DNA of 28,155 bases, taken from the NCBI GenBank assembly GCA_008632985.1, contig QPGO01000040.1:501719-529873 (forward strand). Reading direction: 5' to 3'. This stretch comes from Psammoneis japonica. Its lineage: Eukaryota. Positions 2,721-28,155 of the stretch are shown in pieces (position 1 is the stretch's first letter; each line of letters starts with the position of its first letter). The position numbers and the translations under genes are program-made. Below the pieces are notes generated by a model. That model was not told the DNA's origin and did no database searches. It worked only from the letters and a program-made list of their open reading frames with translations.

Positions 2721-3485
2721 GGTTACTTTTCTTCTTCAGAATTTCAAGAGGGTAGCCCCAGCTGTGTAGTATGGAAAGCATTCGAATTTATGACCATCCG
2801 CGAACAGTAGTTGCACCATCCGCGAACAGTCGCAGATTTCCACCGCCCACGCGTTATGCGTCAAAGACGCGACGGAAGTCTTGCCATGACTGGATTTGTT
2901 GCCTTGATAACGTTTGGAATTTGTGAGCCTGAGGTGGCGCCTTATGTGAAGATCCGCGATTGCTTTAGATGTGCCTTTACGAGTTGCTGAACGCGACGAA
3001 GAGTCTTGACATGATTGGCCATCGCGGCCAACGGCCAACCGCAACACAGTAACGTTCTCATTTCGCGCACCACAAACACGCTGCGCGACAACCGAAGTGG
3101 AAGTGCGGCGGCGGTGGGTGGGACTTACCGGAGGACGGACGGACGTCAACCAACATTCTCAGCATGTTAAGCACAATCAACTAATGGCAATCGATGATCT
3201 TTAGCGCGGCCAAAAAGCCAAAAAGATGGCGCGACATCCAACATCCAACATGATGGCGGACAGCGTGAGGTTTCAGACGGCGCTCACGGCTACACTGTTA
3301 TCTCATTCTTAATGGTACTGTGCTGTTAAACGAATGAGGGTCGACTTCTTCAGGAACCATCATTTCTGCATTCTTCGCTGATTCTTTGCATGAAGCGTCT
3401 GTGGTTAGTAGTCTCTTTCACCGCTTTTCCTCTACCGTTCCACTGTCTTTGTCGTCTCGACCCAGATCGAAATTTTGAAGCCATC

Positions 3486-5013
3486 ATGAAGACGAAAGAA
3501 GACATGACAACTTCTCTGGATTCGTCAGCCTTACAGAGCACCCTAAATGGTGGTGAGACTCCCTCCGTCAAGCGAATCAAATTGAATGACTCAAAATCAT
3601 TCGTCACGCCACGCAGCATCTCTACGGAAAATAGCGAAAACAAGCCTTCAGAAACATTTCCAACTCCGCTGTCTCAGGAGAAAGCCCAGGAATTGTTTCA
3701 ACGAGAAACCAAACACAAAACGACCTTATCGAGTACCAAGAAACGTACGGATTATCTAACGTGGGACGATTACTTCATGTCGGTCGTTTTGTTGAGTGCT
3801 CAGCGTAGTAAGGATCCCACCACCCCGACCGGAGCCTGTATTGTCAATAGCGATAACCTTATCGTGGGTATCGGTTACAACGGATTTCCTCGGGATTGTT
3901 CCGACAATGTCTTGCCTTGGCATGATTCAAATCATACGGAGAAAAATACAGACAAGACTCCTTGGCTGCAGACCCGAGACGCATATGTTTGCCACGCTGA
4001 AATCAATGCGATTCTCAACAAGTGCAGTGCCAACGTAAAGGGCACGAAACTGTATGTCCAGCATTATCCACGTAAGTTGTGCCGTTTCGTCTGAAATATT
4101 CTTATATTCATACTGTAAGGGCTCGTCTCATTTCAATCTTATGCTACACAACCTTATCCCGTTCAAATCTACAGACAACGAGTGTGCCAAGGTCATTCTT
4201 CAAGCTGGAATTCGAGAAGTTGTGTATATGACGGATACTCAACACGAAAAAGAGGAGTACATGGCGAGTCGCATCATGTTTGCCATGGCTGGGATCAAGA
4301 CTCGCCAATACACACCCACTCTTTCTAGTGTCGTGCTTGACTTTGTTCAAAGCATGGCACCGACAAGTGGACACGAGACGATGATGATGATTCCCTCCAA
4401 TAATCAAGCAACGGATAATCAAGACTGCGAGCGCATGCAGTTTTGCAAACATCTCTTGGCCACGGAAGTGGGCGATTCCTATGACATGTCCAAGGCACCC
4501 TTGATAAAACGACAAGACTACATGTCGTGGGACGACTATTTCATGGCCATGGCATTCTTGACTGCCCAACGAAGCAAGGATCCAAACACTCAAGTCGGCG
4601 CCTGTATTGTGGATTCGAAGAAACGCATTATTGGCGTCGGCTACAATGGTTTCCCCCGAGGTTGTTCCGATGATGTCTTGCCTTGGTCACGGTCCTCTCC
4701 CGAAGGCAGCTTGTTGACAAAGTACATGTACGTATGCCATGCCGAAGTGAATGCTATTCTCAACAAGTGCACCACAGACGTGGAGGGTTCCACGCTCTAT
4801 GTCGCACTCTTTCCCTGCAACGAATGCGCCAAGTTCATTATCCAATCGGGAATCAAAGAGATTGTCTATCTGAGTGATCAATACCATGACGTGGATTGCT
4901 CCAGGGCCAGCCGGGTCATGTTGCAAATGGCCAATGTCACGACGCGACAATATGTGCCTAGCAAACAAGTTATTGAAATTGAATTGAAAGAGGCTTCCAA
5001 TGAGGCAAAGTGA
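3486..5013 (+). CDS. DCTD: dCMP deaminase with two tandem deaminase domains; exons 3486-4071 and 4175-5013
   Basis: Two copies of WDDYFM...AQRSKDP...GACIV...GYNGFPR...CHAE.NAILN. The C-terminal domain has PCNECAK. A GTAAGT...TACAG intron restores the frame. Confidence 0.9.
4072..4174 (+). other. Spliceosomal intron (103 nt, phase 1)
   Basis: GTAAGT donor at 4072, CAG acceptor ending at 4174; splicing joins YP-H-NECAK. Confidence 0.85.
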
Positions 5014-5103
5014 AATGCGCAAGAATCAGGTATTCTTTTATTTGTACCCTCTATCTTTAAAGAGGGTACTTTAGTGATGCAGTATTGTAACTGTATTTGC
5101 AAC

Positions 5104-5760
5104 TTATCTTCGTTTCAATTCTCTCCGTTTTGGTTTGCGTCGTTTTCGTTTCGGCTTTTCTTCTTGTTGTTCGTTCTCTTGAAAGTATTCGTGCAGCATT
5201 CTGTCAATCTCCTTGTCACGCCCGGTGCGGTATCCCGCCATGAATTCGGACAGACATTCCGTCGCTAGCTTCATTTGTTCTCCCGCCCACCGTTTCAAGT
5301 CTTCTCCCGAGTGAATTCCAGTCTCGTCTTGCACCTTGTTCTTCCAATACGTTCCTTCCTCTTGAACAAAATCTAAGTTTTTACTGACATTCTCCTTGAC
5401 TGATTTCTTTTTCTGCTCGATTGTTTCAATCAACTCTTCCTCGTCTTTTTGTATTGTTCCTTCTTGTTCCTTTTCCTTTGGAACCAAAAAACCTTCCCAC
5501 GTGCTCTTGTAGTCGGTCCACGTCCACGACGCAACTAATTTCCATTCGTTCAAAGTGCGTGGCATTCGATGAGGCCCGTCCTCATTCTTTGATTTTGGAT
5601 TGGGCAGAGGCTGGCCAAAAATGGCAGACTCTTTTCGTTTCTGGTCAACTGTGAGATGGAAATTTCGGAGAAACGCCATTCGCAGCGGTACATTACGACA
5701 TTGAAAACAGTTCTGCAAGACGAAAAATCGAGTCGCCATGGACCTTTGGTGGCATGACAT
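5104..5760 (-). CDS. Hypothetical protein ('gene X'), possibly organelle-targeted
   Basis: 218-aa ORF with normal composition, Arg/Phe-rich N-terminus, charged helical core and basic tail; convergent with the deaminase gene. The start may be the ATG at 5739. Confidence 0.7.
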   Translation of the reverse strand: MSCHQRSMATRFFVLQNCFQCRNVPLRMAFLRNFHLTVDQKRKESAIFGQPLPNPKSKNEDGPHRMPRTLNEWKLVASWTWTDYKSTWEGFLVPKEKEQEGTIQKDEEELIETIEQKKKSVKENVSKNLDFVQEEGTYWKNKVQDETGIHSGEDLKRWAGEQMKLATECLSEFMAGYRTGRDKEIDRMLHEYFQENEQQEEKPKRKRRKPKRRELKRR

Positions 5761-6203
5761 TTTATAAAGGTGGCGGGCAATTCATACAACAAACGATTTG
5801 CGGACGGCACTTGAGATAAGTATCGTCATGTTTCTTGCTGCTTGAGTGTGAGAGTGATGAGTGATTTGCGATTGGGGTCTGGCGGCCTGCGCGCTGCGCG
5901 CAACCACTATTCTCCGTTCGCCCATCATCCGCCACGCACCACGCCACGCACCGTCGACCTCTCGTCGCCTCTCATCACTCGCTTCTCGCTCGCTCCACCC
6001 CAGCGACCTCATTCACGGTATAATACGCGTTACTTCGTCGTCATAATATATCGCGTTACTGTCGATAACAGTAACTGTCAACTGTTTGCGTTCACAGTCT
6101 GGACTCGTGAGATCACAGTGTTTGTGAAATACTGTGCTGAATTCGCCGAGACAAGAGTCGATTTTTGAGTGCAGCCGCGAATCCAGTTTGACATTGCTGC
6201 AGA

Positions 6204-7370
6204 ATGGAAGACGATGCATCTGCTAGAATCCTCGGCACAATGGCACGAGCTGCAGGAGAGTCAGAGGAGGTGTTGTCATCAAGGCGACATGTCGAAATTG
6301 AACCAGGGTGTGAAGGATACGTCAATGCCAGAAAAATTCTCGTGCGCTCGAAGGATTTAGTTGAATTGCCAGCCGAGATCGGCATGTTGCACCGACTGGT
6401 GGAGTTAGACTTGGGGTATTGCCAAAATCTCCAGCGACTGCCTCCAGAGATTGGGCGATTGACGAACCTCGAAGTGCTGCATCTTTTTGAATGTCGCAAT
6501 CTCGTCACCTTGCCAGATGAGATTGGACGATTGACAAACTTGAGAGAGTTGCGATTGGATGGTTGTGTCAAGCTCGAACGACTGCCTCTTAGTTTGAATC
6601 GGCTCTCACGTCTTGAGGTGTTGGACTTAAGTTCGTGTAAAAGTCTCGTGGGGTTGCCAAGTGACATTTTCCATTTGACAAAATTGAAAAAATTGTCCAT
6701 GTGGAATTGCGAATCTCTCACTCGGCTTCCCCCGGGAATTGGACAGTTGCATCAATTGGAAGACCTCGACCTTTCCGGTTGCGAAAGCCTCACTGAGATT
6801 CCTGTTGAGATTGGTCAGCTGTCGAACCTGAAAACTCTCTCCTTGCGTGACTTGTCGCATGGCGCACGAGAATTCTTACAAAACATTGGCACAAGCAGTC
6901 TGTCGAATTTGACAAAGTTGGGTTTGAGCAGTTGTCTTGATCTCGAAGAGCTACCTCCCGCAGTGGGATCATTTCAGAAGCTAGAACAGCTGAATGTCTG
7001 GAGCTGTAGGAATTTGACTCAAATTGGCAAAGAGGTTCTGTCGCTGCCGAGACTCAAACATCTCAGTTTGTGGGGTTGTGCTGCTCTCACTGTTTCTCCC
7101 GAAGAAATCGGCAAGGCTTCGTATTCTCTTGAAAGTGTGCAGATGCCCCACTCTGCATCCCAAGATGAAATGGACTGCTACTGCGATATGAACAAGGCCG
7201 GACGACACCTGCTGCGTCGAGAAAATGGAGTTCCTGATGCTCTCTGGCCGCACGTCTTGGCGGGTCGTCGAAGCGACGAGAACTTTATATTTTGGATCTT
7301 GAAGCACAACCCGAACTTTGTAAAGAAACGAGTCAAAAAAAGAGGAACCAAGAGAGCTCGCGAGGAATAG
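6204..7370 (+). CDS. Leucine-rich repeat protein (24-aa LxxLxLxxCxxLxxLPxxIG repeats), copy A
   Basis: About 10 LRRs of the plant-NLR-like type, a C-terminal NKAGRHLL...LWPHVL...FIFWILKHNP motif and an NLS-like KKRVKKRGTKRAR. Confidence 0.9.
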   Translation: MEDDASARILGTMARAAGESEEVLSSRRHVEIEPGCEGYVNARKILVRSKDLVELPAEIGMLHRLVELDLGYCQNLQRLPPEIGRLTNLEVLHLFECRNLVTLPDEIGRLTNLRELRLDGCVKLERLPLSLNRLSRLEVLDLSSCKSLVGLPSDIFHLTKLKKLSMWNCESLTRLPPGIGQLHQLEDLDLSGCESLTEIPVEIGQLSNLKTLSLRDLSHGAREFLQNIGTSSLSNLTKLGLSSCLDLEELPPAVGSFQKLEQLNVWSCRNLTQIGKEVLSLPRLKHLSLWGCAALTVSPEEIGKASYSLESVQMPHSASQDEMDCYCDMNKAGRHLLRRENGVPDALWPHVLAGRRSDENFIFWILKHNPNFVKKRVKKRGTKRAREE

Positions 7371-8153
7371 TGAGTTTTGTGTGGACGTTTTGTAAACATG
7401 TTGTGGAGCGGTCTCAATTCGATGACGGTAGATGCTGTGTACTGTAGACTAATGCAATGTAGCTTTCTATGAACGCGCTTGCTAGACCCAATGACTATCT
7501 CATTGATGCCATTAGAATGTAGCCATACCCTTTGTATTACGGTAGACCAATATCTTAATGCAACCAGCTTTACACGCGAAAGAGAGTGGCGACAATTCAA
7601 GAATCTGCATGTGGATTCTCAGTGAAACAGTTGTCGTATGGTATTGCCATTCAAAAGAAGCCATACGCTAGTTGAAACGCTTGTTACATGTCTTTACATA
7701 AGGACCTCTCATTGTCTCGTCGGCCCGAAAGCCACGTTGCGTTTCACGACGAGCATGTGTCACCGCAGGGACGTTGTTTCACGGTAAGAATGGCTCGGAA
7801 ATGATCCAGTTAAGAGCACTACAGCCGCAAAATCTCTACCGCGTAAGTTGTGTAAATGCACAGCGATAGTACCGTAGATGCACGTTACTATCCTTTTCGT
7901 TTCTTATGGACGTGATTCAGGTTGTAGCTATGCGCCTTCTTTAAATAATAACAGATACCTTAGCAAAGCAGACAGCTACTTACTTGAAAACTTCCTTTTC
8001 CTTCTACCTTGTGCCGCATCTTCCGACGATTGGGCAGATCATATATGCAGACGTATCCAAGCGTGCATACGGTATGTGAGTTGTCGAGCGTATTTTTGTC
8101 TCAATTCGTGATGAAAGCGCCGCTGTTAAACTCGTTTGATTGGCGCAGAGAAC

Positions 8154-8521
8154 TGACCAGCCACACATGTATATACTGGTAATATGCTTGATTCAAGGTT
8201 TGTCTTTTGCCCTGTCATTGTAATATTCTCCGTAAAGGAACGGATTATCAGTTTCCAAAAGGACTTTTGAGTGGGCTCGTGTGTCGATTCCATCTTTCAT
8301 AATTCCAAGTCAAACACGGAGCTCATGATGACTTCAAGAGCTCATTGGAGTGTGATACTGCCTTTTTTTCTCTGTATTTCGGTCGACATTGCATCCTCGA
8401 CCTCCAACAATGCCAATGGATACACATTTACTCACTTGATGGCCGAGCCAGCCGGCCACTCCAGACACGTCGTCACGATACTGCACATTGAGCCATCTCA
8501 AGTAGCTTCGACCCAGTCCTC
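8154..8521. repeat. ~368-bp segment repeated at 9396-9759 across the N gap (probable second haplotype or assembly overlap)
   Basis: Near-identical copies with a few SNPs/indels; the second copy starts directly after the Ns. Confidence 0.85.
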
Positions 8522-9363
8522 GGGAAAAGTCAAAAAAGTGTACCACCCGTGAAGTGCACTACTACTTCAAGTGCACTCTCGAGTACACTTATGACTCTCA
8601 GGTAGAATTGTACGTACTAAAGTAATGTCGTTAGTCTACGTAGCCATGTACTGCTCAATGCTTCATTCATGAATATAGATTGAAGATTTGACAATGACAC
8701 CACAATGACTTTTGAGAGAATTACTTATGTGTGAGGACTTTTCGGGAGAACTAGCGTGGTGTAATCGCCACCTTCGTAGAAATGTGTAGGACATGTACCA
8801 AGAACCTCCAACTTTGCTTTTTGGTTGCATTGGTTGCAATCAAAACAGTGCCAAAAGACAAAAGCAATTCACCGCAAAAACTTGCACATCACATTCCAAA
8901 ATACATGATGGATTTTTGGGAGAAAAAACTGGGTTGAAATTGATGTATCGGCTGGCCTTATCGATCGTAAAGCAAAGTACACTTAATTGTCCATTCGCGA
9001 CCAAGGCACGACTTAAGTAGAAATGTGTAGAAAATGTACTAAGCTCCTTATTCTGCACTTTTTCGATGATCTGGATACGATCGAAATAGTGCCAAAATAC
9101 CTAGACCAATTGACCACCAACACTTTTGCGGAAAATGGTAAATTATATGACAGAGCTTTAGGAGAAAAAACCGGGTTGAAATTGATGGCTATGCTGAACT
9201 TGTCGAACGGAACACAAAGTACACTTGGTTGCCCAAAAAGTACACTTACGACTGAAAAGTACACTTACGACTGAACGCCGCACGTAGAATTCTACATGGT
9301 CATCTGGTACATTGGAAAAGGTACACTTCAATTACACTTGAGTACACTCATTTGTCTTTCCTC
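8522..9363. mobile_element. Non-autonomous DNA transposon (MITE-like), ~840 bp
   Basis: Absent at the homologous sites ccagtcctc|aaa at 9759 and 28059. Imperfect TIRs (gggaaaagtcaaaaaagtgtac vs reverse complement gaggaaagacaaatgagtgtac, 17/22). Many GTACACTT/GTGCACT motifs and an internal ~241-bp tandem duplication. Confidence 0.7.
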
Positions 9364-9395
9364 NNNNNNNNNNNNNNNNNNNNNNNNNNNNNNNN
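9364..9395. other. Assembly gap
   Basis: Run of N. Confidence 1.
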
Positions 9396-10422: not shown

Positions 10423-10429
10423 GCCCATG

Positions 10430-12860
10430 GCCCATGTCTGATCGCACTGCCTGCGTTTTTCTTTTTTGCCTGAGACGGTTCGCAGCGCGCTCCGGACAAG
10501 CGCACAGACCATCACCACGGTGAATGACTAACTCCATTCCATGCCATGCATTGCCAGCAGCCAATGGAAATTGAACGGAAGTTGCCGATGACGACAGTGG
10601 ACTTCATCGCGCAACTGTTTCCTGATGAACATCACCATTTCGAGTCCCATTGCAACAGCAGGCTTGTTGCACTGCCTCATGTGTGGGGGTGCGAAGGGGC
10701 CATCAGCGAAGTGGCAGCGAGCCAAGAAGTGTGCAAATGCGCCGCTCCAGCTGTTCGTGGTGTCACCACGTTGCATGCAGACAATGTGTCAACTCACCAT
10801 TTGCCAGATTTTGGGCACCTGCTGAGTCAAAGCTGGTGGAAATGCAAGAAAGGGTCAATGGGTGACTGATTTGTGGTGGTGTGAGACACGTTGCTCCTCA
10901 TCTTTTGGTGGAGAAAGCTCGATCGCAAGTCAGAGACCGCGTGAATGTCATGCAAATGTCGTTTTTGTGCACAATTTGGTCCACGTGTGGCTGGACACAT
11001 CAGGTTGGTTTTGTGTCAGAGCTGCCAGTGAGATGGAGAGGGAGCTGCTGTGGCGGTGTGATCTTCAAGAAAGCAAAGGATGTTGGCCCCAGATTTTCCT
11101 GTGTGCAGAGCAACAACTTGGATCCCAGAAATTTTTGAGGCTGCAGTGAAGCAACTCTGATGGCTCAGTCACTTTGATTTTGTTGATTTGGCAAGAGTCT
11201 GGTTGGAAAGAAAAAACACACAGGATGAAGTTTGCTCACAAGATTCTTGGTGTGTGATCAAAGAAAAAACACTTTCAAACAATGTCGACAGCATTGCATT
11301 GATGCCAAGATGCCAACATCCTGTGGGATGACAAAACCAAATGAGTTGAGCTTCCACACCTTGCTTTTGTCCAGTGCTCTGGATTGCTGACCTCAAAGAC
11401 ACAAATGTCAAATCTGAAAAGGAAAAAGAGTGAGTTGCTTGCAACAAGTTTTTGTGGGTTGCTTTGCCTTTGTGCAGCATTGAAGAAGTCAACCACAGTT
11501 GTCAGGAGGCCAGCCATGGAATGGAAAGCAGAACACAGCCATGAAATGGGTCGTGTTGATGTCATCATGATCCAATGTCTTGTTGGTGTTGAGAAAGGGT
11601 CAAAAACAAAAAAACAAACATTTTCATCACACCGCTGGTCATGAGTCTTGAATCCCACTTAACCCATTTGACTCAAAATTTTCGGAAGATTTGGCTGGAC
11701 TTTGATCTCCTGCTAGAGACACAACACAAATGCCCAAGGTGCGGGCATTTTTGGTCTCCAACACCTCAAATCAATGTCTTGTGAGATGGCAAAATCACAA
11801 GCATGCATTGTTTGTGGTGTTGCATGTTTGACAACAGAGCTGAGACTTTTCAAGGAGCTCCCTCATCACACATGGGAAAGCATGAGGGGCAAATTTCAGT
11901 GGCTCTGTGACCAGTGCAGCTCTCTGCATGTCACCCCAAAACGTTGCTGGGAATTTCTTGCATTGGCGTGATGCCAGTTGGCTGGAAATGTGTTTTGGCA
12001 AAACATGGGGGGGGGGTTGTGACCACATGCTGAAGCAAAGCATTGGGCCTCACAGCTGCAGAGCTGTCAGAGGAGACACCACGGTTTCACTCTAAAATTG
12101 AACCAGAGCATGAAGGGGGAGAGTTGCCAGCCAAAATGGGTGCGCTGTGCCAGCTGGCAGAGTTGAGCTTGAAAAATTGTGCAAATCTCCAGCAATTGCC
12201 TCCAGCAAACAGACAATTGACAAGACTCAAAGCAAGTGTAAAATCCCACAGATTGCTGTGGGCCAACCGAGTTGTTGCCTGATGAGATTCGACGAGTGGC
12301 AGCTCAAGGGCATTTTTGGGCTGGATGGCCATGTCAGTCGTCTTGAGTGGTTGCCTCACAGTGCTTGCACCAGCTCTTGTGTCTCAAAGTGTTGGGCTTG
12401 ACATCTCATGCAAAAGTCTCAAGGGGCTGCCAAATGATGTCTTCCTTTTGAGAAGTTTGAAATGTCTGATCTTGTCGAGTGTGGAGCTTCACATCTCCTG
12501 CCTTGTCGCTTGGCCACCGTCTGGAGCTGGTGGGGGGTAGATTTTGCATCAGTTGGAAGTCCTTCACCTTTCACACTGCAATGGTCTCACTAAAATTCAT
12601 GTTGAGATTGGTGTGCTTTCCAAGCTGAAAACTCTCTTGTGCTTGTGTGAAGTGTCGCACTGCACACGAGATTTCTTGCAAAACACGTTTCTGCTTGTGT
12701 GCCTGAGCATGCTGGGCTTTTGTTGTGGTCCCGAAGAGCTACCTCCTGCAATGCGATCACTTAAAAACCTGGAGGTCGTGCGGATGTGGAGCACTGTGCA
12801 CAATTGACTCAAATCAGCAAAGAGGCACTGTTGCTGCCAAGTCTCAAACTTCTCAGTCGA
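10430..12860. other. CpG/TpA-depleted hypermutated domain 1
   Basis: About 9 TpA seen in 2.4 kb; ORFs lack Tyr and are Cys/His-rich. Confidence 0.85.
12050..12860 (+). pseudogene. Degenerate, 3'-truncated LRR paralogue, copy B
   Basis: Fragments ELPAKMGALCQLAELSLKNCANLQQLPP, CKSLKGLPNDVF, HQLEVLHLSHCNGLTKIHVEIG and EELPPAMRSLKNLE align to 6204-7370, with frameshifts. Confidence 0.85.
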
Positions 12861-14254: not shown

Positions 14255-14256
14255 TA

Positions 14257-15330: not shown

Positions 15331-16928
15331 ATGTCTTCTGATGTTTCGAAACGCCGTCGACTAGAAGACTATAACTCTGCTGCAGCTGTCGATCCCCGAC
15401 TTGCCTTTGGAACCTTTCGAGGAAATACAATCTATCGAAATCGCCTTAATCCGGGAGAAGAGTTCAAGGACGGTCACGTTGCGATACAGAATCTCCTACC
15501 TCCCGCCTGCAGCTCGGCACTTTGTACGACATTTGTCGCTCCGGAAAAAGACTGGCTCGAACAAATCTTTGGTGACATTCCGGAACTCGCAGTGGTAGTC
15601 CATGATGGACGGCCCGACTCCGAGGCACGAATGATTGGAGATGCCCAACTCGTGGGAATTCCGAGACAACAACAAAGCCTTTCATCTTCACGGTGGTACT
15701 ATCTGCTGTGCAAACCTCATACGGGTGGCTGTCTACACAGCAAGCTACTGCTCTTTCGATGCAACTTGGGACTCCGTGTTGTCGTATGTGGAAGTAATCT
15801 CTTCCAGGGGCAGTGGGAAGTCGATCGAGACTGCTTGTGGGTACAAGACTTTCATTTAAATCGAGACAATCTTAGTTCGGAAGCATCGTGCTTTTGAAAA
15901 ACGCTACGGACCTTCTTGGACGATCTAACCTCCTGCGGAAGCGTATCCGACAACCGAATCATTCAGTCAAGACTAGATGCACTGCTGGCAGGTATAGACA
16001 TGACAACTGCTGCTGCGAGATTGGTCATGTCCTTTCCTCGTTCCGCTGGTTATGCTGGCTATGCTAATGATCGCGGTGGTTATAGTCAACTGGCATCCGT
16101 CGTCAGCAGTTTTCTTTGCGAATTGGGTGTCCATTCTGACTATGAGAGCTCTGACTGTGAGAGCGATGGTGATGGTCCTCATACTGCTGCTAGTATTGAG
16201 AAAGAGGAAGAGGGCGGAAAGCTCGTGTATGCCATGGCGGGATCGTTTGGGAATATCCGACCCGACTTTCTTCTGCAGATGCATCGAGCCTTTCAAGGGG
16301 AGAACACACCAGCACCAAGGAGCACGCCGTGGGAGAGTGTCTTGAAGAGCGTTCGTTGCATGTGGCCTAGCCATGAGACGGCCCTTACCATGAATTTGAT
16401 TTCTCTCATAAGTCGCACTCGCGCGATACCACAGTCACACTGGAATACAATCCCCGAAGCGGCCAAACGCCAAATTTCTTCGACTCACCTCCCAACCCAC
16501 CCGAGTATGGCTTATCCCATTTGGGTTGTCATGCCATTTCCCATGCCAAGGTTTTGTTTTCTCCCTGCAATCAAGGTGTCAGTATTGTCTACGTTGGTTC
16601 TCACAACTTCAGTGTGGCGGCGTGGGGCATACGCGGGGAAATGCCCAGGAATGTAGAGATTGGAGTCGTATTGGCCACAGCATGTGCGTCGACTCGCAGA
16701 GAGTGGCAGTGTCGTCTGCCATGCAGGCTTCCTCCTGTCTCTTCTACATCATCTGCAGACTGCATTCCCGCTTCGGCAAATCAAGATGCAGTGAAAGCTC
16801 TGGAAGAAGGACGGCCAGAGGAAGCGATTGAAATTGCCAAAACGTTTCTCCATAAGAAGGAAGAGAAGAAGGTAACGCCAAAGTCCAATGCACCCGCCAT
16901 TGTGATCGACTTGTGTGACTCGGACTAG
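15331..16928 (+). CDS. TDP1: Tyrosyl-DNA phosphodiesterase 1-like (PLD superfamily); in-frame TGA at 15895 and -1 frameshift at ~16475
   Basis: Two HxK...N motifs: LHSKLLLF...RVVVCGSNL and SHAKV...YVGSHNFSVAAWG...NVEIGVV; also WVQDF. Confidence 0.75.
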
Positions 16929-17939
16929 CTGAGGCTTTCCTCTAGACACACAGCACCATGTCATTCATAAAGCTTTCTACTCTAGACACACGCCTGTATT
17001 ATCACTGACAACAAAGGTTGCCACTGCTAATGAGCTTCCTCAGATGATTGGATGGTGGTGTTCTATGGATGCACATTAGGAAATGTGGCTGAATCGATAC
17101 AGTTGAAGCTGAGACCAAAAACTGTTTTTCAGTGATAAGTACTTGTAAACCTAAACCTGTGAATTCAACACTGCCATCACAGTAACACAAATGGCCTTTC
17201 TCAACAATAAAACTCGCAAACGTTGCGTTTCGGGTTTAGGGCTTTCTATTGTAGCCTTTGGAACAAGGACTCAGAACTGTGTCTTTGTAAATGGAGTGGC
17301 ACTCCATAAAAACATTCAGTTGTCTGCTTTGGCTTCAGAACAACCTGCAATCCACACCCTTGCATCTGGGCCTTTGGGTGTGGTGGCAGGGCAACTGGGA
17401 AAAAATGAGATGCCTTCCAGCCCTGGGTGGAAAGAAGTTGTCAAAAACAACCACACACCACCACCACACAACTTGCAAAAAACACATCATGTTGTTCCAT
17501 GTGGAACATGGTGGCCATGTCAAGAAGATTTTGAAGTTTGCTTTGAAATGAAATGTGGGTTTGAAGACACAACATTTGGAGCCAGCTGGAAATGGCTGCT
17601 GAGGTGCTGGGTCAGCTTCCATTGGAACATTTGGTGTGGAGCCCAGATTCCAAAGTCAATCTTTGGCATCACACACAGCTGGTCCACTGAGCCCAAGCTT
17701 CCCTGCAACTGCTGTTGCTGCAGCTGGTGCAACTGACTTTGTGGCGGGAGTTTAAAACCAACAGCTTGGGGGCACCCACCTGAGTCCCAGTGCTGTGCTG
17801 AGCTTCCCAAAGCTGTGGCTGAGCCCAGAACTGGGCCACTGGAAGCAAAAGAGTGGGTGGGGCAGAAGCTGGGCCATCTCAGCTCTGGCAAAGTGCCGCT
17901 GGCATTGAAACAACAAGAGGCTGCAACAACAACAGCTCA

Positions 17940-18480
17940 TTGACACTGGAGTTTGCTGCTGGCATTGCTCCAAAGTGCTCCTGCCCACCGGTGTGCAGCA
18001 GGCAGTTGCTCTCTCCTTGCACATGCTTTTCTTGTCCCCTTTGTTTCAATCAACTTCTCCTTGTCTCTCTGCATTGTTGCTGCTTCGTTTTTTTTTCTTT
18101 GGAGCCAAGAAGCTCTTGTGGTTGGTCCATGTCCATGACACAACTGGCTTTCATTCATTGAAAGCATGCAGTGTTTGATGAGGTGTGCACTTGGCTGGCC
18201 AAAAAGTGGCAAACTCTTTTTGTTCCTGGGTGGCCTGACTGTGAGATGGAAGTTTTGTTTTCTGAGAAAAGCCATTCCTCACAGAGGTGCATCACAGCAC
18301 TGAAACACACCATTTCTGCAAGATGAGTGGAGTTGTTGCAGTTGGCCTTTGGTTGCTTGCCATTGTGAGTGTGGCACCACCGGGAGTGATGCTTGCAACA
18401 CAAAATGATTTGTGAATGGCACTTGTTGTTCAAAAGCATCATCATGGTCAATCACTTTTTTTCTTGCAGCTTGTGCACAG
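17940..18480 (-). pseudogene. Hypermutated partial copy of gene X and its upstream region (5250-5845)
   Basis: Collinear nucleotide alignment; ORF remnants MAFLRKQNFHLTV...LFGQP and EKLIET. Confidence 0.85.
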
Positions 18481-18975
18481 CTTGTCATTTGTGTCATTGT
18501 GGCAGCCACACTCTCAGGCAACTCCAACATGAGAATCACACATGCCTTGCTGATGTGGTTGGTGTGGCAATTGCTCACCATTTTGCATGAAAATGACAGT
18601 GGATGGGAAATCTGAAAAGGCAACGGCAAGTGACAATCAGACACCACAAAGCTGCAAAGCACATTTGTCAAAGCTGCATGTTTCCAAGCAAAGTTCCAGA
18701 AGAGCCTTTTCCAGTCAAATGGGATTCTTGGGCACCACTCATCATTTTTCATTCAGTGAGGTGATTTCTCCTGAGGTGGGAAATTGTGGCTCCAATTTTG
18801 TGCAGAAAATTTGCAGAAAGGAAGGGACATTGCAAAGTCAATGAACAGACAACAGATCAACATCACAAACTGGCATTCAGAACTCATCTCTTGCACTGCA
18901 TGAGGGTGACAGCCAACTGGGTCATGACTCAAGTGAGTCATGTGTGTCAGCAAAACACACTCCAGTGGCATGTCG

Positions 18976-18999
18976 ACACACACACACACACACACACAC
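18976..18999. repeat. (AC)12 microsatellite
   Basis: Direct observation. Confidence 0.95.
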
Positions 19000-20069
19000 T
19001 GGAAAGAAATCAGGGCACCCAGACTGTGGAGGATCTGGCAGAATGCCAAAGGTTGATGATGACAACAACATGAAAGACTCCCCAAGCACTGGGACTGTGA
19101 CAACATGAGTGTCAGCAGAAGAGAACAAGAGGCAGATCTCAGAGAGATCTGCCGGCCCATCCAAGAGGTCTGGCCATCATCCACACACAGTCTGTCCATC
19201 ATGCAACAGGCAGACTGACGGGATCTCCTTGGATCTTCCTCCACTGACTTTTGTTTTGACCAGCAACAAGTCATCATCACTGTTCTGGCACATGTCAGAT
19301 TGTGGCACTTTTTCCCAATGGGCCCAGAACGCCCACTGTCCCAGAAATCACTGCAATGATGACATGTGCTGATGCAACCTCAGTGTCAATGCTTTGGACT
19401 TTGCTGGGGCGGGGGGCATGATGAGCCACCTCAGGACTCTTCTCCAGATGAAGCACTTCCAAAAGATGCCATCACACCCATGGACAACACCTTCAGCAGC
19501 TTTTGTGATCAGCTCACCCATCTTCAATTTCCCGTCCATGGACAATGACCACCACCTTCTCCATCACACCTGCATGGCACCTGTGTTCAAGATCAAGGCA
19601 GCACCAAACAAGGCCACAAAGTGACTGCATTTGGTCTGCACAGGGGATCATCTGTTTGACAGCTGCCCTGCTCTCAAGAACAACCCACACATCAAGGGCT
19701 TCCACACCCACTTTTGTCAGGTCTTGAAATGAGAGGCTGCAAAATGTGCACCTGCATTTGTTGGCAGCCCAAGAAGTTTGCCTGCTGGACAGAATGGGCA
19801 AACACTCGTGAAATCTGAGAACTCATTGTTGGATTTTCAACCAGGCTGTCACAGCCAGTTGTGGACACCTGCAATGCTGCCCACTCTCTCTTCACTCAGA
19901 CACCACAATGACAGCTGGGGGGCATTGAAGAGTGGTTGCCAGCTCCAACACCAACCAGTGCAAAACCTCTTTCTCCAGTTGACACTTCTGCATCCACCAC
20001 TCCTGCAACTTTGTTGACAACTTTCAACATCAATGTGTCAGCACCTGATGACACTTTTGTGCCACTGCA

Positions 20070-21232
20070 TGCCACACGTCAGCTCAGGGAGGGATCAAGA
20101 GCAGGGGAGGGCAGAGGAAACTGTCAAGCCCTTTTTGGAACCATCCCCACATTGGAGTGCTCAGATTGTGATGATGCTCTTGGCCTCACCACCATGTGTG
20201 CACTCAATTTCATGTCAGCAAGGTTGACGAAGCCTTTGCCACATGGCACAAAACCTGTTTTGGAGTTGACCTTGATTGGAACGTGGAGAGTTGCCTGTCA
20301 TGTGTGCACATCCAGGTCACCCTGAGGAGTCTGGAATTTTGACTGAGTGCAAAGCTCTTGTTCTCCAACACCACCCATGACAAGTGTGTCTGTGCATCCA
20401 CCCATGAGGGCAAGTGCACTCTCCTCCAGTGGCAAGTTGAAGACTTCTCAATCATGTGCTGTCCAGAGCATCTTCTTGGGCCATTGTTGTGTGCACATGT
20501 CATTTGTTGCCTTGGCGCTGGGGGCACACAATTGCAACACTCTCCAAGTTTGCCTTGTCACCTGCTCCAACTCAGTTTGCTGCTTTGGCAGACATTGCAA
20601 AGTGTCTTTGTTGCACCAAGTGTTGGGGTGTCAGCTGCAAGAAATCTTGGGAGGATCTTTTGCCACCTGCCTGTCTGTTTGAGCAGCTTGAGGTTGACCC
20701 ATCTTTGTCTGCTTTCCCTTCTGCAAAGTTGCTCATGCAGCTCATGGCTTTCTTGGATGCTGTTTGTGGCAATGACCTTCAGAACCACCAGTCCACTGCT
20801 GCAGGGCATGGATGCACTTTGGCAGGCACTGCAATCTCCTGCCATTGCAAGATGCAGCCAGCTGCTGTGGGTGACTCTGCTGAGGCTGATTTTGTGCCGC
20901 TGACACGCCACCACCAAGCATGTCCTGCATTCATGTTCAGTTCTTCAAGAGCTCTTTTTTCCCAGCCTGACCCCACTCCACTGTTTGTTGATGATGAGCT
21001 GCCTGTCATCAAGATCATCAGCAACCATGTTCCTGCTGAGCACTTGCAGCACCACACTGACACTCAGCAGATGTTGGCCACAATTCGGGGTTGGAAGGAA
21101 GATGGTCGGCACTCTGCCACAAGACACATCATTCCTGGCTGTGTCAGCGCAAGTGATGATCTTGCCAAGGCTCTTGGGTCGATGCTGAATCCCTGGTGCC
21201 ATGCTTGTTGCCTCATGGGACACTTCCATTGA
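20070..21232 (+). pseudogene. Copia RT/RNase H remnant
   Basis: FSNTTHDKCVC...LLQWQVEDFSI (YxDD-equivalent), ATLSKF, AFLDAVCGNDLQNHQST...AEADFV, QPDPTPLFVD, ASDDLAKALG, LMGH. Confidence 0.8.
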
Positions 21233-21615
21233 GACACAATGTCTCCATTTGTTTGGCATTTGGCACCTCCTGCTGCTGAACAGCACCTTGTGCATTTGTT
21301 TTGTTGTCCATTTGTTCTTTGGTCATCCAGCCTGCAATGTGTTTTTCACTGGTCAGCTCTGACTTTCCTGCTTTCCTTTTTGTTCTGTCTGTGATCTGTG
21401 CTGTCTCTGGTTTGGACATGCTGGATCAGGGAAGGGTGTCAGTTGACTGGCACTGCCACACATGGGTGACAGGAAATGACTTGTGTGGCACTGAGTCCAT
21501 GCAGAAAATGTGCAGAAAGGAGGGGGTGTTACAAAACTCAATGAACGGACCAACCTGACAAACAACCAGTGTTTGGAACTTGAATCTTGTGCACAATGAG
21601 CACGCAGCATGTTTG

Positions 21616-24600
21616 TGTTGGAACATCAGGGCAAGAGGCAGCTTTGGGAGTGTGTGATGTGCTGACAACAAACACTGACTTGGTGAATTTTCTGTTTGTT
21701 GCTCTTGACAAATCGCAGGGCTTGTTCCCATTTTTTAGCTTCTGCACCTGGTTGACATGACCACAGTGGCAAAAAAGGCAAAAGATGTGTGTGTGTGTGT
21801 GTGTGTGTGCAATCCATGTGGTGAGTTGAGGTCAGTGAGACCAAGTGACAACCAGCAATCTCTGGAGGGCCTTGCTGCAGGGCAGCTGGAGGGTCTGCCA
21901 AGGGAGGGTGCAGCAAGGATGTGTTGGACTGGAACACTGGTTGAGGACACAACAGCTGAGCATGGAAGCACAAAAGATTAAAAGGAGTGGGCACATGATG
22001 CCATTGCTGAGTTGGGCAGACAGGTGGGCAGTTGCATGGAAATGCAAGAAAGACAAGTGAGTGTGTGGGAAGAGTGTCCAGGCCAGAGATGCAGGTGTTG
22101 GCATCTCTGAGGCAAGAGAACAGGCCAGAGGAACCAGAACATCCACTGGGCATGACTGCATCAGAGAATGACAGGGCAATCTGGGGGAAACAGTGTGGTC
22201 ACTGCATGAAACAGGGTGCAATCCATGAGATGCAGAAGGTGAAGGCATTCAATGTGATTGTGGGACAGTGTGCAAAAGCTGTCCATCACAAGCTTGGAGT
22301 GACAGAGTTTGCAAAGGTCACAAAGGAATGCAGTGTGATGGCACACCATTGGAGGACACAATCAATTTGATCCTGTTTGATGCAGCCAAATGAGAGAGTG
22401 TGCCCGCATGTCCAGGTGGTCCTCAAGGCGTGGAAATGACTGGCGCTCATTTGACAGCATGGAGAAGTGCTTTGAGACCACCACAGCTGGTTTGCAAGCA
22501 CTGCAGAGATGGTGGAAGGGTCATGTTGCAGAGTTGTCCCCAAGGAAATCACCAAGAAAGAAAAAGGGTGCAGGTTGGATGCTGACATCCATTGGGGGGC
22601 TGAATTTATGAATCCTCCTGGCAGCTGGCTGACAAGCAGACAATGGTCAGAGAAAAAGTTTGTGAGTGCAAGCACATGAACTCATTTGTGATCCAATTCA
22701 TCACATGTCACACCTGTTCATGACAAGTTGGTGTGATTTGAAGTGAGCAAATGTCCTTTGCTTTCCAACAAATGTCCCCAAGTTTTCCAACTAAGAAGAG
22801 GTCAAACCAACAAGTTTGGCACAAATCAGCAAGTTGATGCCCACACAAAATGTTCAATTGGACAGTTGCCATCTAAAGTGCAGCTTCTGCAGTTGAGTGT
22901 CGCCATGGAATCTCACATTGAAAAATGAAAACAATGCCACTCACAGGTTTTTATCTGCCAAACCACCATCAACTCCAGTTTGCAGATCTTGGTGCAGCTG
23001 GCCATGTGGTCTCCCTCAGCACCCAAGTTCTCAAGTCCTTCACCTCCCTGCTTTCCATGGCTGGCTGCTGTTGTTCAACACAAATCTCCCCATCAACCAA
23101 GTCATTCACTTGTGATCATGTCTCATTTGATCTCCTTGACCGGCTCTTCAAAGAACTTGTTGGCTCTTGGCGGCCATGTCCCTTGCTTTTCCTTGGCATC
23201 TTGCATCATCTCCCTGTGCCTTCCTTTGCTGGGCTCAAGCTGCTTGGTGCACACTTTCTCTTTTCTGCAACAATCTCCTTTCTGTGAGCCCCTTGTCAGC
23301 AATGCTCTCAAGCTCATTCACAACTTCTGTCAGAGCTGAGAGTTGCTCCTTCATCTTGTCATGCCCTTGTGTCATTGGAAATGGCACAATGCTGTGCTGC
23401 TTGCATCAGCTCAAATCTTGCTCAACATCAACACCCAGCAACACTTGCAGCTGATCTTGTTTTTGCCATGCAGCATGCCTGTTTTGTCCAACTCAATTGC
23501 TTTGCACCAAACATGAGTGTGATGCTCACAAGTGCTTTTTCTTTGGACATGATCTCTCATCTTGATGATGTCTCTGCCAACCTTTTCATCATTGGCTGTC
23601 CACTTCCTCAGGCTGGTGTCTGTCTCTGAGCCACAGTTGCAATGTTTGACAATTGCCTTTTGTGTTGTACATGTTTGCCTGCACTTGCTGTGGTGGCCAG
23701 CACTGCTTTGCACACTGTTGCAAGCTGGCTTTCCCTTTTTGTGTTTTCTCTTGACTTGAAAAAGCAGAATGGATTTAAAATTGCACCCCTGAGTTTCAAA
23801 AACATTTTGATCATTTGTGACTGTGTGCGTGAATGACACAGTCTGTGAATCGTTCACAAAGAGAGTCGCCACCAGAGGCAATTCTGTGTTCCCTGTGCTG
23901 CACTGTGATTGGTCAGAAGAAATGACCCCCCTCTTTTTCATCACTGGCTGAGTCTTCAGAATCACTGGAAGAAGGGGCCTGATGCTTGTTCCTCTGTGCC
24001 GCCATTCTTGAACTGAGTCAAATGGGAGTCACCATGGTGCTCAGGAGATTTCTCCACACACCACCATTGGGCATGCAAACCTCACCCCGTTGATGTGGTG
24101 AAAACAAAGAGTGCAACAGTTGACAGGGTGAATTTTGTGCAGAACTCTCATGGAAAGGACAAAAAATTGCCGTCGAAGTCATTTCACACAAAGAGGAGAC
24201 CAAGTGGGTTTTTGAGGGAAATCACCATGTTGACATTGCACTTGATGGACTTCACAAAGCAAGAAAAAGTTGACAACAAGAGAAATCACACAGAAGTGTC
24301 ACAGAAAAGACAAACACACTGCAATGTTGGTTGCTTCACACAATGGACGAGTGCCGGATTCACCGTCGCCTTGCTCTGGATGTTGCCCTGACAACCAAGC
24401 ATGTCAATGTCCAATGTGAAAAACTTTGGTGAATGCACAAATTTCATTTGACATTTTCAAGAAACTGCCAAGTGGAAATGTTCACAGCAACAATCAAATG
24501 CAACTTTGCAGATTTGAACAAAATGATGCCGGACAGTCACGTGGCGACTGTTGTCACATGAGCCAAGATGTGACAAAAAATGAAATGATTTGGTCATGGG

Positions 24601-25410
24601 GCAACAGCCACGTGCTTGCTGAATGAAAATGTGGAGAACAAACAAAAAAGGTCAACTGCCAACAATCAAGCATCATGTGTTTCAATCAGAGATGGGCTGA
24701 TGCAACAAATCTGAGAGCGCGCTCACTGGGCCAAAGTGCCAAACACAATGCCCTGTGACTCATGTGCCCTTTCTCGCCTCTCTGATGACACCCAGAACAA
24801 GGAAAGGAACAAGTCATTGGTGGCTCTGCTGATGGAAGGCACCAAGGGACATTGCTTTGTTTTGAAAGACCTGCACAGGCAGCTCACATTTGGGGTTGAC
24901 AACAGCTGGGAGGCACTGCTGCAGGTGTTGAACACGTGTTGTGCCAACAAGAAAACCCTGGGACGCAAGTTTTGCAGAAGGCAAGAAGAAGCAGCTGAGG
25001 TGCTGGAAAAGGTGGCAAGATGGGGCATGCTGAGAAGAACTGCCCTTTGCTCAAAGAAGGTGATGGCTGGCAACGACTCGTCAGCTGCATCAGATGACTT
25101 GGGACACGAGAATGTCGGTGGAGCAGCAGCCGACATGGTGTTGGGTGGCATGATTTCCAACTGTCATCCACCCAGGACAGGCACACATGAGGCCAATCAA
25201 TTGATGGCTCATGTGAAGGAGTGTGTTGGAATGTCAGGGTGAGAGGCAGTTGAAGAAGAACAGACAGACAGTGTTGAAGTGTGCGACATGCTGAGAACAA
25301 GTCAATGGCGCGTGGTGAATTTGCGTTCTTTGTTGCTCTCACGAGGCTTGTTCCCACTTTTTAGCTTCCGCACCCAGTGAACACGGCAAGAGCAGTAAAA
25401 ATGACAAGAC
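21616..25410 (+). mobile_element. Degenerate LTR element 2 (gag-only remnant), apparently inserted in the 3' LTR of element 1 and itself interrupted
   Basis: LTR-like direct repeats starting TGTTGGAA at 21616 and 25224 (alignable for ~170-190 bp); PPT-like gaaggagtg at 25215-25223; gag-like AIWGKQ...AFNVIVGQC...KL (22150-22370) and ALLMEG...LKDLHRQLTFGVDN...LQVL (24800-24940). LTR 3' ends and TSD are unresolved. Confidence 0.65.
21786..21809. repeat. (TG)12 microsatellite
   Basis: Direct observation. Confidence 0.95.
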
Positions 25411-25614
25411 TGGGCGCAAACCAGTCGGGAAGCCGCATGCGCAAAGCTCCAACTAACATGCAGTCAGCCCGCCGTCCAGTTCGCATGTCAATTCGTCTGG
25501 CCTTCCTCCGTGCAAAATACTCTGTTGTTCAATCCAAATCGGCAAAATAAAATCGACAACACAGAAAACATGAAACAAACCATTTTTGACATCGAGCGAC
25601 TCACAAGGCAGCGC

Positions 25615-28155
25615 ACTGTACGTTCGCTGTCATAACACGCCGTCACTGTCGACAACAGTCACCATCAAATGTTTGCGTTCATCGTCTGACTCGTGAGATC
25701 TTTATTTTTTTGTGAAAGACGGTGCGCATCCAGTTCGACATTGCTTCACAATGGACGACGATGCATCTGCTAGAATCCGGAGTGCAATGGTACGAGCTAC
25801 AGATCTGTCAGAGAAACATTTTTCATTGTGGGTTCGTTTCGAAAATGAACCAGAACACGAAGGATTCGCCAATGCCAGAGAAATTCGTGCGCAGCATTGC
25901 CTTCGGTTGGTTGAATTGCCAGCCGAGATCGGCATGTTGCACCGACTGGTGGAGTTGAACTTGAGGTGTTGTGTAAATCTCCAGCGACTGCCTCCAGAAA
26001 TTGGGCGATTGACAAAACTCGAAGTGTTGAACCTTTCATGTTGCAGTAGACTGACCGAGTTGCCTGATGAAATTGGACGATTGACAAGCTTGAAGGAATT
26101 GTCATTGTCTTGTTGCGACAAGCTTGAACGACTGCCTCGTAGTTTGCATCGGCTCTTCCGTCTTGAGGTGTTGAACTTGTCAGAATGTGGAAGTCTCGTG
26201 GGGTTTGCCAAGTGACATTTTCCGTTTAAGAAGTTTGAAAAGGTTTTTTGTCNTGTTGCAGATCTCTCACTCGGCTGCCCCCGGGAATTGGACAGTTGCA
26301 TCAATTGGAAGACCTCGACCTTTGTCATTGCAACGGTCTCACTGAAATTCCTGTTGAGATTGGTCAGCTGTTGAAGCTGAAAACTCTCTCTTTGTATGGC
26401 TTGTTGCATTGCACACTACAAGAATTCTTTCAAAACATTGGCACAAGCAGTTTCTTGAATCTGACAAACTTGGATTTGTGCGGTTGTCGTGGTCTTGAAG
26501 AGCTGCCTCCTGCATTGGGATCACTTCGAAACCTAGAGGGGCTGAGTTTGAAGGGCTGTAAGCAATTGACTCAAGTTAGCAAAGAAGTTCTAGTGCTGCC
26601 GTGTCTCAAAAGTCTAAGCTTGTGGCGTTGTTTTGCGCTCACTGTTTCGCCCAAAGAAATCGGCGAGGCTTCGTATTCGGTTGAAAGTGTTCAAATGCCC
26701 ACCAATGAGTCTCAAGGTGAAATGGACTGCTACTGTGAAATGAACAAGGCCGGACGACACCTGCTGCGTCGAGAAAGTGGAGTTCCTGTTGCTCTCTGGC
26801 CGCACGTCTTGGCGGGTCGCCGAAGCGACGAGAACTTTATATTTTGGTTCTTGAAGCACAACCCGAACTTTGTAAAGAAACGAGTCAAAATAAGAGGAAC
26901 CAAGAGAGCTTGCGAGGAATAGTTTGTTCTATGTTGATTTCTTTTAAACACACAGCGGTCTCAATTCGACTACTTGTGGAATAGCACAATGTAAGCTTTC
27001 TATGAACGCGCTTGCTCTAGACCCAATGACTATCCAATTGATGCCATTCAGATTGTAGCTGTGCCCTTTCTATTCAACCAATGTCTTACTCAATGAAACA
27101 CCAGCTTTCCTCGTAAAAGACATCGCGACGATTCAAGAATCTGCAGCTGGATTCTCTGTGGAAGCAGTTGTCGTATGGTATCGCCATCCAACAGAAGCCC
27201 TAGTAGGGCACAATAGTAGAAATGCTTGTTACAGGTCTATCGCACCTTCCTCTCATTGTCTCGTCGTCCCGAAAGCCACGTTGCGTTTCCCGACGAGCAT
27301 GTATCACCGCAGCGACGTTTCACGACACGAAAATGATCTATTTCAGAGCAACATAGCCGCAGAATCACTAGTGCGTAAGTTGTGTAAATGCACAGCGATA
27401 GTACCTTAGATGCACGTTACTATCCTTTTAGTTCTTTTTGACGCGATTCAGATTGTATCTATGCGCCTTCTTACATATGACAGATACTTTAGCAAAGCAG
27501 AGAGCTACTTACTTGGAAACTCCCCTTTCCTTCAATCTTGTGCCGCATCTTTCGATGATTGGGCAAATCATATATGCAGACGTATCCAATGTGCATACAG
27601 TTACGTGAGATGTCGAGAGCGTCTTCTTTTGTCAAAATTTGGAGTACCTCTTCGCCAATTCGTGATGAAAGCTGCTGTGAAACTCGTTTGATTGGCGCAG
27701 AGAAATGACCAGACACACGCGCATATACTGGTAATGTGCTTGATCCGTGCTTTGTTTTGTGCCATTTTCTCGTAATATTCTCCGTAAAGGAAGGGATCGA
27801 CAGTTTCCAAAAGGACTCGCGAGGGCTCGGGTTGAGATTCCAACCTTAATATTTCTAAGCCAGACAAGTGATGAAATAAAGATAACATTGGGAGTGCGCT
27901 TCTTCCTTTTTTCTCTGGATTTCTGGCAAATTGTATCCTCGTCCTCGAACAAGTCGAATGGATACACATTTACTCGCTTGATGGCCGAGCCAACTGCCAC
28001 CCAGACACGTCGTCACGATACAAAGACATTGAGCCGTCAAGTAGCTTCGACCAGTCCTCAAATTAAAATCCAAAAATCCATGGCTTCTTGTTTTGCGATT
28101 TTGCATATATGCAGCAAAGACGATTGGCCATCGTTCAACCTGAATCGCCTTACAG
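25615..28155 (+). repeat. Segmental duplicate of ~6030-8521 plus 9760-9860
   Basis: Collinear similarity through the upstream region, LRR CDS and >1.2 kb downstream. Confidence 0.9.
25751..26922 (+). CDS. LRR protein copy C; net -1 frameshift at 26200-26255 next to an N (likely assembly error)
   Basis: Full-length paralogue of 6204-7370 (MDDDASARI...KRACEE); the indels fall in T homopolymers. Confidence 0.75.

Follow-up and report, generated by a model that had tools for sequence, protein, structure and literature searches.

To our knowledge, fungi are the only organisms in which programmed point mutation of unwanted DNA is firmly established, in the form of RIP. RIP depends on pairing. In ascomycetes, it converts CpA to TpA and affects both copies (PMC2621366), and a RIP-like mutation targeted at TCG has been described in basidiomycetes (PMC3318451). 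The first report of a TpA-specific form dates from 2026 and concerns one chlorarachniophyte, Bigelowiella natans (10.64898/2026.01.13.699255). According to that preprint, of 231 new mutations that arose in two integrated viral regions of B. natans mutation-accumulation lines, 230 were A>G/T>C changes at TpA, the mutation rate in the hypermutable regions was about 1000-fold over background, the genome contains 124 TpA-poor and CpA+TpG-rich clusters, and an ADAT2-like deaminase was proposed by Mettrop et al. (10.64898/2026.01.13.699255). Clusters of A>G and C>T changes made by deaminases in ADAR/APOBEC hyper-editing, in which ADAR prefers a 5' U, are described there as a form of defence (10.64898/2026.01.13.699255). 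In the literature that was searched, neither a process acting jointly on CpG and TpA nor a RIP-like process in diatoms was found, and the B. natans preprint was the sole close match.

The window analysed in this study is the whole stretch of 28,155 nucleotides. It contains two blocks nearly free of TpA and poor in CpG, one of which includes a dead fragment of a host gene whose intact copy is located in the same window:

10530..12740, no strand: D1, the second converted block; TpA 6 vs 150 expected, CpG 41 vs 125
17310..25360, no strand: D2; TpA 10 vs 532 expected, CpG 62 vs 475, TG 960 vs 516, CA 918 vs 490

Gene X and its dead fragment

The intact gene, designated gene X, and its counterpart are as follows:

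5104..5760, minus strand: intact gene X, an ORF of 218 aa for a conserved hypothetical protein, with normal CpG (O/E about 1.1)
5761..5887, minus strand: upstream non-coding part of gene X, common to the dead copy; CG and TA are retained here, and the alignment ends at 5887
17965..18507, minus strand: dead copy of gene X, comprising upstream DNA and the first ~140 codons

Self-BLAST of the window paired 5391-5830 with 18012-18446 (63% over 477 columns, E 1.9e-33), and local alignment without a transition penalty gave a longer homology, 5339-5887 vs 17965-18507. The alignment of gene X with the dead copy comprised 486 aligned positions (362 identical, 92 transitions and 32 transversions) and 120 gap columns. 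Eleven homologues of gene X, all unnamed, were detected (E 6e-43 to 1e-17, the best match at 49% identity); across these 11 homologues the family has 23 invariant columns, mostly C-terminal. A Pfam search with gene X and the 11 homologues returned no family and only sub-threshold noise.

The conserved C-terminal part of gene X (5104-5338) has no counterpart in the dead copy, which carries stops at codon 27 (CGA>TGA) and codon 73 (TGG>TGA) as well as frame-breaking gaps, and from which the invariant residues W88 and N124 are deleted. Two further conserved codons are altered, that of Y84 (Y in 11 of 11 homologues; TAC>CAC) and that of R68 (R in 8 of 11; CGC>CAT). One contig of the sequencing run X1 reproduced the dead copy over 18041-19098 with 0 other letters. 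The stretch 17965-18507 is a truncated, dead fragment of gene X; the homology and the truncation and death of the copy are established. The initial annotation, made from the sequence, had named an intact gene and a dead copy, and the homology, the truncation, the stops and the gaps bear it out; the strings that it quoted are present at their positions, and the span that it gave for the copy, 17940-18480, was roughly correct.

None of the 24 aligned CpG of intact gene X is kept in the dead copy (16 read TG, 6 CA and 2 AG), and none of the 12 aligned TpA is kept (7 TG, 4 CA and 1 AG), while 253 of 423 other dinucleotides are kept (Fisher p 8e-10 for CpG and 2e-5 for TpA). The dead copy is nearly without CG and TA, so that zero retention is partly forced, and the presence of TG or CA at the opposite position is the fairer measure. 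Intact CpG and TpA face TG or CA at 33 of 36 sites in the transition-tolerant alignment and at 28 of 38 in a neutral MAFFT alignment, compared with a chance rate of 24% (460/1925) in 56 shifted controls (binomial p 5e-18). Transitions affected 12 of 26 A/T sites within TpA vs 41 of 248 elsewhere (p 1e-3), and 23 of 51 C/G sites within CpG vs 16 of 161 elsewhere (p 2e-7). The near-complete change of CpG and TpA to TG/CA that had been claimed is seen in the 33 of 36 aligned sites, and the enrichment at TpA over other A/T sites, on which the initial annotation had staked its reading, was present as well (0/12 TpA kept vs 78/129 AA/AT/TT, p 3e-5).

A deaminase gene region lies next to gene X:

3390..5013, plus strand: dCMP deaminase gene region, two overlapping ORFs, each with a dCMP_cyt_deam_1 domain

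The two ORFs match human dCMP deaminase 2w4l (E 2e-36 and 2e-69) and are probably one two-domain gene, since each relative is a single protein of about 400-540 aa; the interruption, near 4054-4094, would be due to an intron, a frameshift or an assembly error. The best-ranked matches have 50-58% identity, and the best organism-named matches are from the diatoms Attheya, Seminavis, Thalassiosira, Cyclotella, Cylindrotheca, Nitzschia and Cyclostephanos. When 19 named matches, a set with no other stramenopiles, were placed in a tree with the window ORF, the latter fell into a 100/99 clade with 11 diatom-type rows, apart from animals. Judging from this one gene, the window probably derives from a diatom-like ochrophyte and not from Bigelowiella. 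dCMP deaminase is an enzyme of nucleotide metabolism, and its position beside gene X looks coincidental; these neighbouring genes were considered as the mutator and rejected on account of their match to 2w4l.

At the start of the window, an open frame of 698 aa (1-2097, plus strand) that extends beyond position 1 matches Peptidase_M64 (E 1e-11) and contains a PT repeat. Its nearest protein atlas clusters are bacterial with scores below 0.8, which makes them leads only, and the atlas gave no usable lead for either gene X or this M64-like ORF. The protein collections contained no high-identity relatives of any window protein.

Direction of the changes and the LRR gene copies

Three segments of an LRR gene are present in the window:

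6013..8536, plus strand: LRR-A gene segment, beside intact gene X, normal composition; first half of the control pair
25601..28076, plus strand: LRR-B gene segment, directly right of D2, normal composition; second half of the control pair
12121..12858, plus strand: LRR-C, converted third LRR copy inside D1, with weak LRR Pfam traces; polarises the changes

Self-BLAST with YpR steps collapsed identified no homology in the window beyond the X pair and this LRR triple. LRR-A and LRR-B have 15 CpG in common, of which 1 is kept in LRR-C and 11 are now CA or TG; the 3 TpA that they have in common are all TG or CA in LRR-C, and other common dinucleotides are kept at 36-80%. The mass balance in D2 is established as well, with an excess of TG+CA (872) that approximates the deficit of CG+TA (935). 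Because the LRR triple, the conserved codons and stops (Y84, R68, codon 27) and the mass balance agree, the sequence comparisons indicate that both classes of change run from CG/TA to TG/CA and that CG/TA is ancestral. The same direction had been given for both classes in the initial annotation, and LRR-C, Y84 and the stops of the dead copy all concur with it. The weakest point of the direction argument is the small number of polarised TpA cases, namely 3 in the LRR triple and Y84. Gene X relatives in metagenomes, at 30-60% protein identity, are too distant for site-wise polarisation and served as a composition control only.

In both loci the genes have the same order and orientation, with minus-strand X followed by plus-strand LRR, and transversions outside CpG/TpA amount to 9.3% between gene X and the dead copy vs 8.3-8.6% between LRR-A and LRR-B; both pairs therefore probably stem from one segmental duplication. 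In the LRR-A/LRR-B control, 79 of 129 CpG and 54 of 90 TpA are kept, with retention of other dinucleotides at 0.60-0.77. Since a pair of the same age retains CG and TA, time alone does not erase them in this genome. The window thus provides a natural experiment, in which paralogues with intact partners and a control of matched age fix the direction without an outgroup genome.

The specificity of the process is not absolute. Transitions outside CpG/TpA reach 13-18% in converted copies vs 6-7% in the control. Double flips between CA and TG were counted at 6/64, 11/108 and 15/116 in the pairs with a converted copy vs 7/359 in the control, i.e. about five times more commonly, and they explain the extra transitions only partly. 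Such flips would be expected if newly arising TpA and CpG were re-converted over a long period. In the LRR-C branch, A>G changes outside TpA were found at 10/36 ApC and 12/38 ApT vs 6/70 ApA and 4/53 ApG; this bias for positions before a pyrimidine may be a secondary context of the process, and the numbers are small.

Several further observations concern the LRR loci. LRR-A and LRR-B (6251-7250 and 25501-26750) have a TpA O/E of 0.13-0.25 with near-normal CpG, compared with a TpA O/E of 0.42-0.78 in other genes of the window; LRR-repeat codon bias or an older, partial TpA episode might account for this, and the comparison of LRR-A with LRR-B revealed no excess TpA loss after their duplication. 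A 368-bp segment, 8154-8521, recurs at 9396-9759 (98%), the two copies flanking a gap of 32 N (9364-9395), and 9396-9860 resembles 27706-28155 at 79%. Scaffolding may have duplicated the sequence around the gap, or the segment downstream of the LRR gene may truly exist in a fourth, partial copy.

The two converted blocks and their extra DNA

Subdivisions of the blocks and the extra DNA of the second locus are as follows:

17235..24345, no strand: CpG-poor core of D2; 39 CpG vs 418 expected
24346..25361, no strand: right 1 kb of D2; 0 TpA (66 expected), 23 CpG (59 expected)
10530..10990, no strand: left 461 bp of D1; 0 TpA (27 expected), 20 CpG (30 expected)
18508..25600, no strand: extra DNA between dead X and LRR-B, about 7.1 kb vs 126 bp at locus A

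The confinement of the changes to two blocks is established. D2 has an overall TpA O/E of 0.02 at an about unchanged GC content, and its 500-bp windows starting at 17251-24751 have TpA O/E values of 0-0.10 and TG/CA O/E values of 1.68-2.14; outside D1 and D2, the window has a CpG O/E of about 1 and a TpA O/E of about 0.57. No microsatellites that would explain the composition were present, and no converted-type 500-bp windows were found in 47 related eukaryote-like metagenome loci (266,775 bases). Nine of the 10 TpA remaining in D2 lie within 21530-23776, a 2.2-kb part that may be younger or less fully converted.

The loss of CpG travels with the loss of TpA inside the same sharply bounded blocks. 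Both classes have sharp edges in common at two places: on the left side of D2, dense CpG stops at 17231 and dense TpA at 17307, and on the right side of D1 the limits are ~12730/12740. At two of the four edges the TpA-free zone exceeds the CpG-poor zone. Both classes obey one domain, and TpA conversion is wider or more efficient. A single dual enzyme with two efficiencies fits these edges, and so does TpA editing combined with slower decay of methyl-CpG. The block edges do not coincide with the homology edges: at 8.05 kb, D2 is 15 times as long as the 0.54-kb X homology, and the dead copy lies at its left edge. Because the block exceeds the homology and holds extra, partly repeated DNA, the real unit looks like the domain and the X fragment like a passenger at its edge.

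The extra DNA of D1 amounts to about 1.7 kb (10422-12121) vs 237 bp at locus A and is followed by LRR-C. A Pfam search with 75 ORFs from D1 and D2 detected only weak LRR traces, in D1. ORF lengths in the blocks are within chance (an ORF of at least 263 aa occurred in 15% of simulations); the ORF at 21629-22198 on the minus strand had no relative, nor did that at 18756-19379 on the minus strand among 1.84 billion representatives. Neither Pfam nor homologue searches found a transposon or virus identity for the extra DNA of D2, and Rfam and tRNA scans found no RNA genes in the window. An organisation of D2 as a tandem array of ~2.7 kb was considered and rejected, as only modules of 129-161 bp are common and TRF found no array. 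The modules repeated within D2 are 18775-18913, similar to 21468-21608, and 21614-21783, similar to 25222-25409; another comparison of internal segments gave only shuffle-level similarity.

Of the X1 contigs that match the window, 219 of 465 are only 90-95% alike to it and pile up on parts of the blocks; differences in the contigs of this run comprise 192 transitions vs 67 transversions. The summed depth of X1 contigs was 1821 at 10336-11002, 621 at 19007-19673 and 319 at 21675-22341, compared with about 49-58 in single-copy gene bins (5000-5666 and 13004-17005). These values, which are summed contig depths and not copy numbers, suggest that parts of the extra DNA in D1 and D2 are repeated.

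Contigs of a second run, X2, whose kind is only guessed, fell into 12 of 30 bins, none of them from 17006 on, and are not evidence either way on expression. The X2 word depth was 4224 and 4003 at 13242-13840 vs about 25-40 elsewhere, with the peak on an alpha/beta-hydrolase-like ORF (13065-13934). X1 and X2 contigs share letters that deviate from those of the window at 15383, 15385, 15395, 15397, 15895 and 15908, near the break between the ORFs 15268-15897 and 15916-16656 (weak match to Tyr-DNA phosphodiesterase), and these differences may reflect local assembly errors in the window or another strain or haplotype.

Trigger, mechanism and comparison with known systems

The initial annotation had proposed that only the dead copy was hit, that the target was a host-gene duplicate rather than a TE, and that the process was directed by chromatin domain rather than by pairing. 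Intact gene X was indeed spared, with a CpG O/E of about 1.1 at its locus and with CG and TA kept even upstream of the ATG. Selection alone as the reason for this sparing was rejected, because the region upstream of the ATG, in which the intact locus retains CG and TA, contains 10 of the 36 converted sites. Pairing of the X copies is likewise ruled out as the trigger by the untouched intact copy, including its upstream part, and by a block that far exceeds the homology. The description of the target was not supported as it stood, given a 0.54-kb copy at the edge of an 8-kb block with ~7.1 kb of extra DNA. Chromatin-domain targeting is a fair inference from the two sharp boundaries in the sequence that both classes share, so that this proposal stands insofar as X-pair pairing is excluded; recognition of the inserted repeats by homology or RNA, followed by spreading, is a possible trigger.

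We consider it likely that a segmental duplication, an insertion-bearing block and regional conversion of CpG and TpA, presumably by deamination linked to silencing, together account for the window. One segmental duplication would have copied a head-to-head unit consisting of the 5' part of gene X and the LRR gene, and about 7.1 kb of extra, partly repeated DNA would then have come between the X fragment and LRR-B at the second locus. Regional, context-specific transitions would then have affected the entire 8-kb block, including its passenger, the X fragment, and put TpG or CpA in place of nearly every TpA and CpG; the conversion would have stopped at boundaries unrelated to homology, sparing intact gene X and both normal LRR genes. 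The blocks may represent silenced domains seeded by insertion. Loss of TpA may have proceeded through an A-to-G change, i.e. adenine deamination as proposed for B. natans, and loss of CpG through the same enzyme or through deamination of methyl-cytosine within the same domain. The process would have been long-lasting, re-converting CpG and TpA as they newly arose.

An alternative that keeps a RIP-type homology trigger would have the repeats in D1 and D2, rather than the X pair, recognised by pairing or small RNA, with the mutation leaking into the flanks. It would be in keeping with the many X1 contigs that are only 90-95% alike (219/465), with the predominance of transitions among the differences in that run's contigs (192 vs 67 transversions), with depth peaks that fall inside D1 and D2, and with the extra DNA that both blocks hold relative to the paralogous loci. 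The duplications of X/dead X and LRR-A/B, however, triggered nothing in the intact copies, and the block spans single-copy flanks such as 18041-19098. The signature is also reversed, as RIP makes TpA from CpA and hits both copies (PMC2621366), and we regard this alternative as unlikely. Less probable still is that one enzyme acted on 5-methylpyrimidines in self-complementary YpR steps, as a TET/JBP-type oxidase would do if it turned T in TpA into 5-hydroxymethyl- or 5-formyl-uracil, leading to T>C, and also used 5mC in CpG, so that no adenine deaminase would be needed. 5-Formyluracil mispairs with G, giving T>C, and 5hmU occurs at TpA in dinoflagellates. Such an enzyme would suit the two targets, both of them palindromic steps in which a purine follows a 5-methylpyrimidine, as well as the two sharp boundaries that both classes have in common. 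C>T at CpG is not explained by it without deamination, and the authors of the sole experimental precedent interpreted it as adenine deamination (10.64898/2026.01.13.699255).

There is very little probability that the blocks arrived free of CpG and TpA as foreign DNA, e.g. an integrated virus, or as retro-copies of hyper-edited RNA, with no mutation in place. Most of D2 is without a recognisable host-like gene, and the hypermutable regions of B. natans are integrated viruses (10.64898/2026.01.13.699255); the host paralogues dead X and LRR-C, however, display site-by-site conversion of CG/TA to TG/CA, and the edges of the blocks differ from the homology edges. A retro-copy is further contradicted by the upstream DNA retained in dead X and by its order and orientation relative to the LRR gene, which are as in locus A. 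An artefact of assembly or of base calling at modified bases is barely credible. The near-total depletion does look deterministic, and the window differs from run contigs at scattered sites, X1 and X2 agreeing against it at 15383-15908. Against an artefact, D2 was reproduced by X1 contigs (18041-19098 with 0 other letters and 19866-20707 with 4), where X1 may be the assembly's own source, and the dead copy also differs from the intact gene by 32 transversions and 120 gap columns.

Host genes beside inserted DNA appear to have been destroyed as collateral. If one system acts on both dinucleotides, it would constitute a new DNA-editing activity (on A and C, or on T and 5mC, in YpR palindromes), and the absence of CG and TA together with doubled TG and CA would be a signature for silenced DNA in protist genomes. 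We put forward, tentatively and as the less probable extension of these results, that a diatom-like stramenopile possesses a single domain-targeted DNA-editing defence that rewrites CpG and TpA to TpG/CpA by means of either a polynucleotide deaminase acting on both A and C or an oxidase of 5-methylpyrimidines. Insertions would seed this defence, which would spread to sharp chromatin-type boundaries and kill host paralogues as collateral; it would be a functional analogue of RIP with the opposite chemistry, either common to or convergent with the rhizarian TpA hypermutation. It is also possible that the loss of CpG is a separate, slower process from the loss of TpA. Coupled CpG loss, spread into host paralogues and the diatom-like affinity of the window were not found in print.

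Diatom transposons are methylated at CpG. Like the decay of methylated repeats through deamination of 5mC, the process described here turns CpG into TpG/CpA, in blocks that may be silenced. Such decay and the TCG-targeted mutation of basidiomycetes (PMC3318451) spare TpA, which is lost here, and ordinary decay rarely reaches a CpG loss of 87-91% with sharp edges within 8 kb. The substrates of ADAR and APOBEC are RNA or the element's single-stranded replication intermediates, whereas the conversion seen here affects both strands of flanking single-copy host DNA that has kept its original order and its upstream region.

The blocks resemble the products of RIP in that dense transitions in specific contexts inactivate duplicated or repeated DNA and spread to some extent into its flanks. 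Unlike in RIP, TpA is destroyed rather than increased (10 vs 532 expected in D2), CpA and TpG accumulate and are almost doubled, and GC content is about the same. Nor are both copies hit within the duplicated span, since the intact copies are spared, intact gene X is normal and the block is 15 times as long as the homology.

The closest comparison is with B. natans. In both cases the effect is regional, extends over several kb of mostly unannotatable content and turns TpA into TpG/CpA (10.64898/2026.01.13.699255); here, none of the 12 aligned TpA is preserved and 11 now read TG/CA, with extra transitions elsewhere. In 500-bp windows, D2 falls within the cut-offs used for the B. natans clusters, i.e. 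at least 3 kb with a TpA O/E of at most 0.43 and a CpA+TpG O/E of at least 1.52 (10.64898/2026.01.13.699255). The depletion is deeper here, with a TpA O/E of 0.02 vs a Rho of 0.45 in the B. natans giant-virus region (10.64898/2026.01.13.699255). The spectrum is not restricted to TpA: CpG is lost along with it (24/24 in dead X and 14/15 in LRR-C), whereas the new mutations in the B. natans lines were at TpA in 230 of 231 cases, and the main text of the preprint has 0 mentions of CpG (10.64898/2026.01.13.699255). Some host-type domains are among the affected genes of B. natans (10.64898/2026.01.13.699255), and two host paralogues are hit here; unlike in B. natans, it is their intact partners that give the direction. 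The closest named relatives of the dCMP deaminase gene in the window are diatoms and not Rhizaria, unlike B. natans, and there is a hint that the process is present in a lineage far from Bigelowiella.
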